This document shows positions 13,930-16,768 of a DNA stretch of 39,017 nt, piece after piece; the first letter of the stretch is position 1, and every line of letters starts with the position of its first letter. Under the pieces are notes generated by a model. It worked only from the letters and a program-made list of their open reading frames with translations, was not told the DNA's origin and did not search any database. The DNA is from Candidatus Gottesmanbacteria bacterium RBG_16_52_11 (GTDB lineage Bacteria; Patescibacteriota; Microgenomatia; UBA10105; UBA927): assembly GCA_001779095.1 (NCBI GenBank), contig MFJD01000008.1:1873-40889 (forward strand), in the 5' to 3' direction. Both the position numbers and the translations under genes were made by a program.

Positions 13930-14352
13930 ATGGCAATAAAAATCACGTGGACACAGCCGGACAAGCAGGATGCCAAGCCGACCGTCGCCGGAATCGGTGA
14001 CACGGTCAGGGTTCACTACAAACTGATTGAAAAGGAAAAAGTATCCGGCAAGGCAAAGCGGGAAGTGCATGTAACGACACGGGAAAGAATCCAGGTTTTT
14101 GAGGGCATCCTGATTGCTGTCCGGGGTTCCGGATCCGACACGATGATGACGGTCAGACGGATCGGTACCGGTGCGATCGGCATTGAGCGGATTTTTCCCC
14201 TTACATCACCATGGATCAGGAAGCTGGAAGTCAAAAAACGTGCCGATGTCCGCCGGGCTAAGCTGTATTATCTGCGCGCCCGGAAAGGCAGACTGGCGAG
14301 CAAGCTGAATGAAGCCGATGTTCGGAAAAACGCCACGGCAGGTGTTGGGTAA
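13930..14352 (+). CDS. rplS: 50S ribosomal protein L19
   Basis: GDTVRVH, RIQVFEGILIA, GIERIFPL, VRRAKLYYLR. Confidence 0.97.
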   Translation: MAIKITWTQPDKQDAKPTVAGIGDTVRVHYKLIEKEKVSGKAKREVHVTTRERIQVFEGILIAVRGSGSDTMMTVRRIGTGAIGIERIFPLTSPWIRKLEVKKRADVRRAKLYYLRARKGRLASKLNEADVRKNATAGVG

Positions 14353-14692
14353 TAACGGAGAAGACCTGGCAGCTAGCTACCTCACCAAAAACGGGTACCG
14401 CATCTTAACCCGTAATTTCCGGACCAGATTCGGGGAGCTCGATATAGTCTGCCTTAAAGCCGGGACGGTGGTTTATGTTGAAGTCAAAACCCGGATAGGG
14501 AGGCTGTTCGGTACACCGGAAGAGGCTATCACTACCCGTAAGATCAGACGGATACTGACGGCGGCAAACATTTTCCAGTCCGCACATCCGGAACTACCTG
14601 AATCGATACGGCTGGATTGCGTGTCAGTCGAGTTTGATCCAAGTTCGGGAAAACTGGCCCGGCTCGAACACATAGAAAATATAACCCAGTGA
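14318..14692 (+). CDS. yraN: YraN family (UPF0102) putative endonuclease
   Basis: GEDLAASYL..GYRIL.RNFR..GELDIV..VEVKTR..RLDCV; follows rplS; start uncertain (14309 or 14318). Confidence 0.93.
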   Translation: MFGKTPRQVLGNNGEDLAASYLTKNGYRILTRNFRTRFGELDIVCLKAGTVVYVEVKTRIGRLFGTPEEAITTRKIRRILTAANIFQSAHPELPESIRLDCVSVEFDPSSGKLARLEHIENITQ

Positions 14693-14700
14693 GTAATTTT

Positions 14701-14709
14701 TGATATAAT
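14701..14709 (+). promoter_or_regulatory. Extended -10 promoter of the tRNA-Lys locus
   Basis: TGATATAAT (TGnTATAAT) 14 nt upstream of the tRNA-like 5' end at 14724. Confidence 0.65.
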
Positions 14710-14723
14710 GAAGTGTCGTTAAA

Positions 14724-14773
14724 GGGCCCATAGCTCAACGGCAGATCCGCCGGCTGGCGGACTTTTAAGCTAT
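14724..14773 (+). pseudogene. tRNA-Lys 5' pseudo-copy with palindromic hairpin replacing the 5' anticodon-stem region
   Basis: 14724-14745 identical to 15022-15043 (22 nt); 14762-14773 identical to 15052-15063 (12 nt); gcagtagc is replaced by tccgcc-ggct-ggcgga. Confidence 0.9.
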
Positions 14774-15050
14774 GACGACTTGGGTGTACGTTATAATGGA
14801 TGACACCGATAGAATTTATATTAGTCAAACCAATAATCTTGAAAAGAGATTATTACGGCATAGTGGCTACTTAAGTAGCAAGCAGAGTAGTCATACCAAG
14901 AGACGGAAAGGAAAATGGGCAATTAAATATACTGAAAAGTTCAATAACCGCCCAGACGCAATCAGGCGTGAAAAAGAGTTGAAGTCGTACCGAGGAAGAG
15001 AGTATATTAGGCAAATACTTCGGGCCCATAGCTCAACGGCAGAGCAGTAG
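14772..15050 (+). CDS. Small stand-alone GIY-YIG nuclease (UPF0213/YhbQ-like)
   Basis: WVYVI..IYISQTNNLEKRLLRH..HTK..W..AIRREKELKS; YIG reads YIS; start and stop codons both lie in tRNA-derived sequence. Confidence 0.9.
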   Translation: MTTWVYVIMDDTDRIYISQTNNLEKRLLRHSGYLSSKQSSHTKRRKGKWAIKYTEKFNNRPDAIRREKELKSYRGREYIRQILRAHSSTAEQ

Positions 15051-16768
15051 CCTTTTAAGCTATTGGTTGGAGGTTCGAATCCTCCTGGGCTCACTGATAG
15101 TGTTTTTGAAGTGTTGTACTTATCGTTTAGCTCGAAAAGAGGGGCTAAATTGAGTGTTCCATTTTCTAATTCTGTGTAGGTTGGCAGGTCTTCAAAAACT
15201 AGCCCGAACATGGCAGCATTTTGGAAGGGATTAGTGCTTCCGAACAGTAAATCTTTGAGGTGTTCCATGAAGTACTGGGTGTAGTTTATGAGTATCTGAA
15301 TATCAATCTGCTCTTTCTCTTTCTTTTCTCGTACACCCACGAGACTTACCTTCTCATGCTCCAGTTTTTCTATGTCATCCTCAATCAGTTTGATTGTAGT
15401 TGGAAGTGAGAGCATCTTGATTTTATCTTTCAGCTCATGGATTTCATGCTCAATGCTGATAAGTCGTTCGTTGAGTTTGACAGTTACATCTGATACCTGG
15501 TGCTCCCGTTTGTTCCATTCCCCTAGGAATATATCTCTGAATCTTTTTACAAAGCTCTCATCAAAGTCTACATGCTCCATAAACGTCTCTACACGGGTTT
15601 CTAGTGCGTCTACGGGTATTCTGAAGTATTTATGACCACGGCTACAATGGTAAGCAGGGAAGTGTTTACCAGACTTACCCTTTGAAGCGCTGGCAAGTAG
15701 AGGGTTTCTACACGTCGGGCATAAAATATATTGTTTGTACGGGTAGAGTGGATTCTCCTTCTGCTTCCTCAATCTCCAAGGGTCAACCTTGCCTCGATAA
15801 ATCTTCACAGTGTCGCCATCTTCAACAATAGTTATTTTCCCACGATTAGCCCGATTGAACGTGTCTATTGAAACAAGACCAGGAAACTTACATTTTGTTG
15901 GTTCACCATCAAGCCACTTTTCAGTGTTTACACCAGCGTAAATAGAATTCTGAATGTAGCGCTGCATCTGTTTGATGGTAAGTGGTACTCCTCCCATTTT
16001 ATCAATAATTTTTTGCTTATCAGTTTTATCATGGAGCTTTCTCATTCTCGACTTGTAACCAATGGCGTTTACTTGTTCGACAATCTGTAAATCCGTCAAA
16101 GTTCCTTGTTCTCGAAGTTCAAACATCTTGATAAACCACTGAGCTTCTACAGGGTGAGGTGCAAGAATAACTCTCATGCCATGGGTTGTTTCAATCTTTT
16201 CATTCTGATAACCAGGTGGTGCTGGCCTAACACGATAACCCATACGTACATACCTGACTTCCGCACCTATCATCCTTGTAAGAATGTCCCTTACCTCGCT
16301 TTTACCTCTCTCTGCTTCCAACATTTCAGTCACCCAGGTGGGACTATACTCTGACCAGTTATACTTGAGACCAAGATGGTCGAGAGTATTTACTGTTTGC
16401 GTTCCGATTACTCCATACACGTCAATAAATTGAACCCCATACTTAGCAAACTGAGACTTGAGCAATCCATACATCGTAGCTCCGCCTCTCGTGCCCCTGT
16501 CAATGCTTTTTATGAAAGCGTAGCTGATTTTATTGTGGGGATTTTTACAGTGTTCGAGAGCTTTGAGAATAGGTTGTCTATCTAGCTCTCCCGAAGCCGA
16601 CTCAGTGAACTCGAAAAACTTACTAATAGTAATGTTGCGATTGATGGTCAAACCTAATTGTTCTGCCCGCCGGAGTAGTTGCTGTTTCTGGTCTTCGTGG
16701 CTATCACCCATAAGACCTTGCTTGGTAGAAGATACTCGTAAAATACCGATAGCGTATTCTGTTTTCAT
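14891..16768 (-). CDS. Large serine recombinase (integrase); last 65 aa read antisense through tRNA-Lys and the GIY-YIG gene
   Basis: LRVSSTKQ catalytic Ser, ESASG, SIDRGTR, recombinase domain, Zn ribbon CPTC..YHC, coiled coil; tail PGGFEPPT is the antisense T arm. Confidence 0.93.
   Translation of the reverse strand: MKTEYAIGILRVSSTKQGLMGDSHEDQKQQLLRRAEQLGLTINRNITISKFFEFTESASGELDRQPILKALEHCKNPHNKISYAFIKSIDRGTRGGATMYGLLKSQFAKYGVQFIDVYGVIGTQTVNTLDHLGLKYNWSEYSPTWVTEMLEAERGKSEVRDILTRMIGAEVRYVRMGYRVRPAPPGYQNEKIETTHGMRVILAPHPVEAQWFIKMFELREQGTLTDLQIVEQVNAIGYKSRMRKLHDKTDKQKIIDKMGGVPLTIKQMQRYIQNSIYAGVNTEKWLDGEPTKCKFPGLVSIDTFNRANRGKITIVEDGDTVKIYRGKVDPWRLRKQKENPLYPYKQYILCPTCRNPLLASASKGKSGKHFPAYHCSRGHKYFRIPVDALETRVETFMEHVDFDESFVKRFRDIFLGEWNKREHQVSDVTVKLNERLISIEHEIHELKDKIKMLSLPTTIKLIEDDIEKLEHEKVSLVGVREKKEKEQIDIQILINYTQYFMEHLKDLLFGSTNPFQNAAMFGLVFEDLPTYTELENGTLNLAPLFELNDKYNTSKTLSVSPGGFEPPTNSLKGYCSAVELWARSICLIYSLPRYDFNSFSRLIASGRLLNFSVYLIAHFPFRLLV
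15022..15093 (+). tRNA. tRNA-Lys (anticodon TTT), CCA not encoded
   Basis: Acceptor gggccca/tgggctc+A, D arm gctc/gagc, anticodon arm gtagc-cTTTTaa-gctat (TTT at 15054-15056), T arm ggagg-ttcgaat-cctcc. Confidence 0.97.

Follow-up and report, generated by a model that had tools for sequence, protein, structure and literature searches.

How does an open reading frame (ORF) for a small nuclease come to lie inside a tRNA gene that its host cannot do without? The question is raised by a 39,017-nt stretch of contig MFJD01000008.1 from Candidatus Gottesmanbacteria bacterium RBG_16_52_11 (the window, by which we mean the whole stretch analysed), in which a 92-residue protein of the GIY-YIG type is encoded between a partial, dead copy of tRNA-Lys(UUU) and the intact gene. 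From the layout of this locus, its recurrence at other tRNA genes and the states in which one homologous site is found, we lean towards the answer that the window holds a homing-like mobile selfish cassette, which keeps the essential tRNA by partial duplication.

A GIY-YIG gene nested in a duplicated tRNA-Lys gene

The order of the locus was read on the plus strand between 14300 and 15500 from the sequence, the ARAGORN output and the ORF list. ARAGORN found tRNA-Lys(ttt) as the sole tRNA of the window and a single gene for tRNA-Lys(UUU) in the assembly. A first-pass annotation of this DNA had pointed out that the 5' half of the tRNA is duplicated around the GIY-YIG gene, and both of the exact blocks it listed, of 22 and 12 nt, were recovered. 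The 22-nt block comprises the 5' strand of the acceptor stem with the greater part of the D arm and is present in exactly two copies in the window (14724-14745 and 15022-15043; 0 in 100 shuffles). The 12-nt block, cttttaagctat, covers the anticodon loop and the 3' strand of the anticodon stem, its intact counterpart lying at 15052-15063. Between the two blocks, 8 nt of the intact tRNA (gcagtagc, 15044-15051) are swapped in the upstream copy for the 16-nt GC-rich hairpin TCCGCCGGCTGGCGGA, a replacement that had also been described and is plain from the sequence. Outside the hairpin the dead copy and the intact tRNA are identical (22/22 and 12/12), so the window offers no evidence that the working end is of foreign origin.

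The ORF is fused to tRNA sequence at both of its ends, as the same annotation had claimed. Its ATG (14772-14774) borrows the last two bases (AT) of the copied second block, while its TAG (15048-15050) ends at tRNA position 29, such that the first 29 nt of the tRNA overlap the 3' end of the ORF. No obvious Shine-Dalgarno sequence precedes the window ORF. The proposed TGnTATAAT promoter can be read ahead of the cassette as TGATATAAT (14701-14709). TGnTATAAT also lies 5' of the dead copy in relatives and 5' of tRNA-Lys in alleles that lack the insert, and TGATATAAT is presumably the tRNA-Lys gene's own promoter, from which the dead copy, the ORF and the tRNA are now transcribed. A promoter consensus scan requiring a -35 box did not list TGATATAAT; scanning gave one promoter-like site inside the ORF (14979-15008), which is at chance level (1 found vs 1.2 expected), and no terminator was found by the promoter/terminator scan. 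The whole leader folds no better than shuffled sequences (z -0.67). Rfam (E <= 0.1) finds the tRNA as the sole match at the locus and, because nothing else is found there, no group I intron is present, in keeping with the initial reading of the sequence.

The window protein matches the Pfam family GIY-YIG (PF01541) with an E-value of 1.3e-10 and a score of 41.9 bits against a cut-off of 22.6, the domain spanning residues 4-73. Conserved residues include Y6, Y16, R26, H30, E55, R66, E67 and K71, among which Y6, Y16, R26, H30 and E67 are invariant in a 15-sequence alignment; the window protein has all of these five, with Ser at the nearly invariant Gly18. When a profile of 15 cassette proteins was compared with the PDB, the best matches were 1ywl (E 1.5e-14) and 1zg2 (5.7e-14), both UPF0213 proteins, followed by SLX1. 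An AlphaFold2 model of the window protein (mean pLDDT 81.4) gave the same neighbours: the top 11 Foldseek matches in the PDB were all UPF0213 (1zg2, 1ywl) or Slx1, with TM scores of 0.54-0.63 and a probability of 1.00. The predicted fold is the GIY-YIG alpha/beta fold and is UPF0213/SLX1-like. The last residues of the protein, which are translated from tRNA sequence, are disordered in the model. NCBIfam holds no family for the window protein, and three relatives reach the group I intron endonuclease model only below threshold. A tblastn search of 50,697 phage records returned no phage homolog.

Cassettes at the tRNA genes of relatives

Comparisons were made across 41 genomes of the same class (40 relatives and the window genome), in 38 of which homologs of the window protein were found, at 0 to 11 per genome. 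The 105 loci inspected comprise the 30 best matches, further listed regions and the four loci of the window genome itself; about 30 lowest-scoring matches of 150, and 18 further matches, were left out. These loci contain 129 unique GIY genes, which were sorted by their tRNA neighbourhood. A same-strand tRNA follows directly in 48/129 and a further nine lie between two tRNAs (57 together); 19/129 lie just 3' of a same-strand tRNA and 7/129 at a contig edge. Chance adjacency to a tRNA would be about 0.4% by our own estimate from 48 tRNAs per 1.47 Mb. The layout first noticed in the window, an intron-free cassette sitting in a tRNA gene, recurs in the relatives, and at least 25 tRNA species host it.

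Duplication of tRNA sequence around the nuclease gene, which had been suggested as a test of the homologs, is likewise found beyond the window: exact flank repeats of at least 12 nt accompany 29/55 tRNA-adjacent genes vs 14/74 others. The latter 14 are mostly duplicated tRNA 3' ends, which reveal a mirror form, with the order intact tRNA, ORF, hairpin and dead 3' part (L133, L135). A strict detector found a perfect block of at least 10 nt in 27/57 upstream cases, and several others are visibly diverged copies; the dead and intact copies are divergent in L015, L020, L038, L039 and L056. The stop codon falls within the tRNA in 29/55 upstream cases, 12 of which have a conserved TAG at tRNA positions 8-10 and six a TAG at positions 19-21. 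The suggestion that 5' processing of the tRNA would cut off the stop codon of the nuclease gene thus applies well beyond the window. Tandem arrays were also observed. The whole cassette is repeated in L141. In L203 (G041:C35:1-1532) the array consists of four dead tRNA copies of 84 nt, each with a hairpin, and stands beside the closest outside homolog (55% identity). Dead copies ending at the helix junctions 26/27 and 43/44, as a junction-cutting enzyme would leave them, were considered and rejected, the ends ranging from about 25 to 53.

Two further features of these loci were recorded. ARAGORN run without intron search missed three intron-bearing tRNA-Asn genes, and group I introns (RF00028, 65-79 bits) lie in tRNA-Asn beside GIY-YIG cassettes in L022 (1252-1484), L024 (1277-1482) and L151 (897-1141); two kinds of selfish insert thus share the same tRNA gene. 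In several genera a motif closing with ccctgaggagcgaagcgacgaa ends exactly at the tRNA start (L056, L062 with three tandem copies, L068 and L037).

Four small GIY-YIG genes are encoded in the window genome (1.47 Mb, 18 contigs, 48 tRNAs). One of them belongs to a second cassette, at tRNA-Asn(GUU) on the minus strand (G000:C1:108100-108700, locus L007), which has the order promoter, 19 nt of tRNA, 39-nt GC hairpin, 8 nt of tRNA, GIY-YIG ORF and intact tRNA. Its ORF contains one in-frame TGA at a position where relatives have a conserved Trp, and by this reading is probably dead. Like tRNA-Lys(UUU), tRNA-Asn is encoded by a single gene in the assembly, and each cassette therefore sits at an essential gene. 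At tRNA-Cys (G000:C14:9440-9800, minus strand, locus L047) there is a remnant without an ORF: a promoter-like box is followed by a partial tRNA copy that is broken by TCCGCCAACTGGCGGA and situated about 80 nt 5' of the intact tRNA-Cys; this looks like a cassette that lost its gene. A further tRNA, to which ARAGORN assigned the anticodon TTA (it would read UAA), lies in a tRNA cluster of the same genome (G000:C3 10849-10927, minus strand).

The syntenic L19/YraN/tRNA-Lys locus was compared between genera. The first-pass annotation had asked for an empty allele at this site, and four were found (L051, L055, L072, L073), in which L19 is followed by the TGnTATAAT promoter and then the tRNA. Filled, decayed and remnant states were recovered alongside them. 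Five alleles are filled (the window, L053, L054, L076, L078); that of L054/L016 holds a GIY pseudogene, and that of L053 a GIY gene with its best match to the Val-type lineage. One allele, L056, is a remnant that retains 27 nt of dead copy and one half of the hairpin. Between genera, the homologous site is therefore polymorphic for presence and absence of the cassette (5 filled, 1 remnant, 4 empty).

Purifying selection acts on the ORFs, with omega at 0.06-0.21 in 8/11 of the pairs tried and the other three saturated. Cassettes at tRNA-Val are syntenic across three genera, where GIY identity is about 73-82% vs 68-81% for the flanking genes. In a FastTree phylogeny of 107 proteins the tRNA-linked members cluster (15 label changes vs 35 in shuffles, with 0/500 as low), a result that speaks for clustering only, since kin share labels. 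Subclades of the protein track tRNA identity across genera.

Outside the lineage, 43 loci from species-representative genomes of many phyla were mostly ordinary UPF0213-type genes with no tRNA nearby. Only L080, L081, L082, L084 and L099 showed a tRNA or dead-copy context, and the combination of tRNA, ORF and hairpin-bearing dead copy was found in L099 (a 129-kb Bacteroidia contig), L082 (Fidelibacterota), L084 and L081. The last of these, from a Cyclobacteriaceae metagenome-assembled genome (MAG), carries TCCGCCAGTTGGCGGA on a contig of only 2 kb that is possibly misbinned. A metagenome search with YraN gave 59 loci, all at <=53% identity, of which 48 are without a downstream tRNA and 10 lie at contig edges; no close strains were among them. 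One metagenome contig, L248, has a distant YraN homolog, then a GIY-YIG gene and then tRNA-Pro.

The features of the window locus are collected in Table 1. The large serine recombinase gene on the minus strand, which directly adjoins the 3' end of the tRNA, probably belongs to a separate integrated element, outside the cassette. Metagenome contigs of 3.5-5.4 kb match the window from 15091 onward (about 38 differences in 360 nt) and not upstream, which suggests an integrated element that uses the 3' end of the tRNA as its attachment site. Among sequencing runs, no RNA run was listed for this DNA, and the best DNA runs contained 0.17 of the sampled words. Four metagenome runs yielded short contigs only, on parts of the yraN and recombinase regions, together with many foreign tRNA-Lys matches.

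Table 1 Features of the tRNA-Lys locus in the window
Feature	Position	Strand	Basis and remarks
Ribosomal protein L19	13930-14352	+	Pfam; precedes YraN
YraN/UPF0102 gene	14309-14692	+	Pfam; with L19 defines the syntenic locus for allele comparison
Extended -10 promoter-like TGATATAAT	14701-14709	+	Sequence reading; 14 nt 5' of the dead tRNA copy
Dead tRNA copy, block 1 (tRNA-Lys positions 1-22)	14724-14745	+	Exact match
GC hairpin TCCGCCGGCTGGCGGA, 6-bp stem, 4-nt loop	14746-14761	.	Sequence; present in centroid fold
Dead tRNA copy, block 2 cttttaagctat (tRNA-Lys positions 31-42)	14762-14773	+	Exact copy
GIY-YIG ORF, 92 aa	14772-15050	+	ORF list, Pfam PF01541
Intact tRNA-Lys(UUU)	15022-15094	+	ARAGORN; Rfam tRNA 72.9 bits
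Large serine recombinase gene	~15100-16768	-	Pfam Resolvase, E 1.1e-5; context only

The GC-rich hairpin inside and outside cassettes

At the junctions inspected, the partial tRNA copy is nearly always broken by a GC-rich hairpin. In Asn, Leu, Val, Arg and Gln cassettes it lies in the D loop, and in those at Lys, Tyr, Phe, Gly and Ala it takes the place of the anticodon arm or of that arm's 5' strand; the dead copies of L031, L084 and L130 contain two. It always stands 10-31 nt upstream of the start codon. Two roles were considered for it and rejected: an intrinsic terminator, as a U-tract follows the hairpin in Lys cassettes only, and a sequestered Shine-Dalgarno site, as the distance to the ATG is variable. 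In an alignment of the TCCGCC type from 13 cassettes, which had been found by protein and not by motif, pairing is 98.5% vs 27-59% with a slid partner. The alignment contains two compensatory pairs, both from L020 alone, and its sole broken pairing cell belongs to the pseudogene cassette L016. Judged by these bases, the hairpin is conserved mainly as sequence, and the covariation support for its structure is modest.

Which hairpin family a cassette has, and where in the tRNA copy, varies with the clade of its nuclease and not with its tRNA or genome. An IQ-TREE phylogeny was built from 32 rows (31 of the 107 above and the C1 pseudogene at tRNA-Asn, read with X at stops). An 11-row clade (95/92) unites the window cassette with seven others at tRNA-Lys/Asn and three at tRNA-Asn genes that contain introns. 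Every one has the TCCGCC-type hairpin, which follows tRNA position 13 in the Asn cassettes and position 22 in the Lys cassettes. With L016 and L080, the closest outside homolog counted next to this clade, all 13 cassettes in or next to it have this hairpin type or a variant. A Leu clade of six rows (95/89) comprises four tRNA-Leu cassettes, one tRNA-Gln cassette and the tRNA-Asn pseudogene of the window genome. Its hairpins are of a long CCCGCC...GGCGGG type directly after G18G19, the Gln case reading CCCGTC...GGCGGA and L123 having a degenerate 5' arm. Two lineages thus hold tRNA-Asn, each with its own hairpin family and position, and this pair of lineages is the strongest evidence both for movement of cassettes from one tRNA species to another and for a pairing of hairpin and nuclease.

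The genome-wide count proposed in the first-pass annotation gave 12 copies of TCCGCC-N4-GGCGGA in the 1.47-Mb genome vs 0 for the reversed control. Across the lineage there are 344 copies, in 37/41 genomes, vs 1 in reversed controls, and most of them are not beside GIY genes. In the window genome 2/12 copies lie in tRNA-derived sequence and 11/12 are without an adjoining GIY gene; the others include two in a T-box-like leader, copies in 5' untranslated regions (UTRs), which usually cap a longer stem, and one inside an ORF. Pairing of the flanks around the hairpin is in modest excess (mean 9.5 vs 7.0 pairs in 1000 random placements, p 0.015). Three genomes, G015, G019 and G038, have the hairpin and no GIY match, and hairpin and GIY copy numbers across genomes, which are not independent, give a Spearman coefficient of 0.32. 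The hairpin may spread on its own. The nuclease and hairpin had been likened to the pairs formed by repetitive extragenic palindromic (REP) sequences and REP-associated tyrosine transposases (RAYT). The link between the two partners is partly supported, in that the hairpin type follows the nuclease clade (13/13 in or next to the Lys/Asn clade); cutting or dispersal of the hairpin by the nuclease is at most partly supported, since most copies lie away from GIY genes, some genomes have hairpins alone, copy numbers correlate weakly and each cassette shows a single hairpin in place of a pair.

Individual copies outside cassettes were found in several structured settings. A weak T-box-like leader (30.6 bits vs a gathering score of 93) lies upstream of serS at G000:C16:65335-65552 (L049, 536-753), and two copies of the TCCGCC hairpin are at its stem tips. 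At G000:C1:29953 and C4:155599 (L001, L002) the hairpin caps a longer stem in paralogous structured 5' UTRs, 31 nt 5' of a strong Shine-Dalgarno sequence and ATG; neither matches an Rfam family, and the proteins encoded downstream are without an assigned function. In L198, from a Cyclobacteriaceae MAG, a copy forms the tip of a terminator. The window genome also has four RAYT-like Y1 transposase genes of 227-239 aa (G000:C1:21139, C14:3199, C3:32076 and C6:33059). Each has a GC hairpin of its own on either side, never the TCCGCC hairpin, and they were accordingly rejected as mobilisers of the latter.

Explanations for the cassette and its relation to known systems

The cassette, which we favour as a homing-like element, comprises a GIY-YIG ORF of about 85-92 codons encoding the catalytic domain only, a partial tRNA duplicate and a GC-rich hairpin. 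The duplicate leaves one intact essential tRNA gene beside a dead partial copy, which the hairpin breaks in the D loop or by replacing part of the anticodon arm. Its commoner form, to which the window belongs, runs from the tRNA promoter through the dead 5' copy with its hairpin and the ORF to the intact tRNA. The ORF is essentially without UTRs, its start abutting the dead copy and its stop lying at or inside the tRNA 5' end. With start and stop embedded in tRNA parts, the product could therefore be made only from the unprocessed tRNA precursor, RNase P cleavage leaving a stop-less message. Expression would be low and self-limiting, and silencing by the host would cost it the tRNA. The SLX1-like nuclease would break the tRNA-gene DNA of an unoccupied allele, and repair would copy the cassette from the occupied one, with tRNA and flank serving as homology; tandem arrays would be expected because of repeated break and repair. 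The hairpin would be inherited within a cassette lineage. Most likely it deprives the dead copy of the nuclease site, or divides the direct repeat into short blocks (22 + 12 nt in the window) and so guards the cassette against recombinational deletion; a leader element and a mobile partner are other candidate roles.

Several observations weigh against this explanation. The window protein carries Ser at the nearly invariant Gly18 of the YIG motif. Neither Pfam nor the structural model reveals a DNA-binding domain in the 92 residues, and site-specific homing by a protein without one is hard to picture. Characterised GIY-YIG homing endonucleases have a DNA-binding domain. No tRNA adjoins 46/122 of the GIY genes that are not at contig edges. 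The synteny of the Val cassettes and the purifying selection equally fit long vertical inheritance, even a host function. The Asn and Gln cassettes of the Leu clade match the sequence of the new target on both sides of the hairpin, and because the flanking bases are of the new target's type a single cut-and-copy event is insufficient. Lastly, the intact tRNA is the same as the dead copy outside the hairpin; a tRNA-cutting nuclease should therefore cut the host copy too.

The evidence on vertical descent also fits a domesticated nuclease that serves the host. This would be a vertically inherited gene, co-transcribed with the tRNA and acting in repair, structure resolution or as a guard against integration, and the dead copy with its hairpin would be an old insertion scar reused as an expression-controlling leader. 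Low omega values, Val cassettes diverging like their flanks in three genera and protein subclades that follow tRNA identity would all be expected of such a gene. Its fold is nearest to housekeeping-type UPF0213 and to SLX1, a structure-specific repair nuclease, and the hairpin, always 10-31 nt ahead of the start codon, is where a leader element would stand. Against it, one locus shows filled, pseudogene, remnant and empty alleles, with a different GIY lineage there in one genome. A host gene would also have to accommodate copy numbers of 0 to 11, the pseudogenes (C1 of the window genome and L016), the tandem arrays and the presence of Leu-clade cassettes at tRNA-Asn and tRNA-Gln, and a serine-recombinase element is probably integrated at the window tRNA in spite of the nuclease. 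We regard a host-serving role as rather unlikely. An error of assembly or chance, in which a mis-join at repeated tRNA sequence produced a spurious ORF, is very improbable indeed. The genome is a draft in 18 contigs, the four metagenome runs gave no contig spanning the cassette (the organism is almost uncovered there), and many GIY genes of relatives are near contig ends. However, the same layout is present at dozens of loci, both in 38 genomes that were assembled independently and in other collections. Pfam recognises the ORF with significance, and its catalytic residues are conserved. What sets the two blocks apart is a clean exchange of 8 nt for 16 nt and not a junction.

Two further explanations turn on the hairpin. 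In one, the cassette is mobile and the hairpin unrelated to it, being an independent REP-like palindrome that settles in free stem-loops, with interrupted-repeat cassettes surviving longer. The abundance of the hairpin would fit this (344 copies in 37/41 genomes vs 1 in the reversed controls), as would its position outside tRNA-derived sequence in 10/12 copies of the window genome and the lack of a GIY neighbour in 11/12. So would its presence in G015, G019 and G038, the weak correlation of copy numbers, the tendency of its flanks to pair such that it caps longer stems, and the terminator-tip copy in L198. An unrelated palindrome is not expected, however, to track the nuclease clade in family and insertion position, to be found in 13/13 cassettes in or next to the Lys/Asn clade, or to break nearly every recognisable dead copy, several of them twice. 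The same 16-mer family is also present in a GIY cassette of another phylum (L081, on its possibly misbinned 2-kb contig), and the four RAYT-like genes of the window genome use different hairpins. We consider it doubtful that the hairpin is a bystander. In the other, nuclease and cognate GC hairpin form a two-part mobile system aimed at the loops of stem-loop or cloverleaf DNA, a REP/RAYT-like arrangement that would be a new class of bacterial element in several phyla. The nuclease would cut tRNA-gene DNA at a clade-specific loop position (e.g. after G18G19), the hairpin copied into the cut would act as an immunity tag, and the ORF would come to lie between the disabled copy and the regenerated tRNA. 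The hairpin alone would spread in trans to other stem tips, such as those of the T-box leader, the 5' UTRs and terminators. We put this forward tentatively and think it improbable.

If the homing-like cassette is the correct explanation, it would be among the smallest selfish cassettes inside an essential gene: about 300 bp without UTRs of its own, borrowing the promoter and the start and stop signals of the tRNA, with the host kept alive by partial tRNA duplication. It would extend the mitochondrial strategy of a mobile ORF with a duplicated gene end to bacterial tRNA genes and place the large, functionally unassigned UPF0213-type family of single-domain GIY-YIG proteins in a concrete biological context. 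SLX1 acts on branched DNA together with SLX4, and the cassette nucleases, which have no DNA-binding domain, might similarly find their target by recognising structure in tRNA genes. For annotation, partial tRNA copies with GC hairpins beside short GIY-YIG genes would be neither errors nor unexplained tRNA pseudogenes. Together with the group I introns, the cassettes would mark the tRNA loci of small-genome bacteria as crowded sites of selfish DNA. We found no description of bacterial tRNA-nested single-domain GIY-YIG cassettes in a literature search whose coverage excluded most subscription journals and supplements, and the family does not seem to have been described.

The nearest precedents for the architecture are the mobile ORFs (mORFs) of fungal mitochondria. 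These insert in an essential gene together with a replacement gene end and leave the native end as a dead duplicate, with examples in atp6 of Allomyces macrogynus and in atp6, atp9, cox2 and nad3 of Glomus (PMC3630166). The cassettes share with them a free-standing endonuclease ORF (of the GIY-YIG type in Glomus atp9) in an essential gene of which one end is duplicated and, with some mORFs, the fusion of the ORF in frame or in phase with the host gene (PMC3630166). Unlike mORFs, the cassettes target a bacterial tRNA gene and not a protein gene, of which the 5' or the 3' part may be duplicated; their ORF is a bare catalytic domain of 85-92 aa, and the dead copy bears a lineage-specific GC hairpin. 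Seg proteins are larger and carry DNA-binding domains. SegB of phage T4 is described as a GIY-YIG homing endonuclease that cuts related phages in their tRNA gene region and so drives the inheritance of its own (PMC2330249). It resembles the cassette nucleases in being encoded by an intron-free GIY-YIG gene among tRNA genes, whereas SegB is not known to be accompanied by a partial tRNA duplication or a hairpin.

As in tRNA-targeting integrative elements, insertion of the cassette is offset by a duplicated tRNA segment; in contrast to them, it has no integrase, measures only about 300 bp and duplicates the 5' portion along with the promoter context. An element of that kind, with a serine recombinase, probably occupies the 3' end of the same tRNA-Lys. 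The cassette also differs from a group I intron with a homing endonuclease, there being no ribozyme core at the window locus (Rfam E <= 0.1). With REP/RAYT systems the cassettes have in common a GC-rich palindrome dispersed in the genome, a nuclease gene with an adjoining copy and a hairpin family that co-varies with the nuclease clade. They differ from these systems in their enzyme, which is GIY-YIG and not HUH (Y1), in having one hairpin 5' of the ORF and no flanking inverted pair, and in that most hairpin copies are far from GIY genes. The closest relatives of the protein itself are the UPF0213/YhbQ-type proteins and the SLX1 domain, which are its best sequence and fold matches and have the same size and catalytic residues, save for the Ser at Gly18 of the window copy; unlike most UPF0213-type homologs of other phyla, the cassette nucleases adjoin tRNAs.

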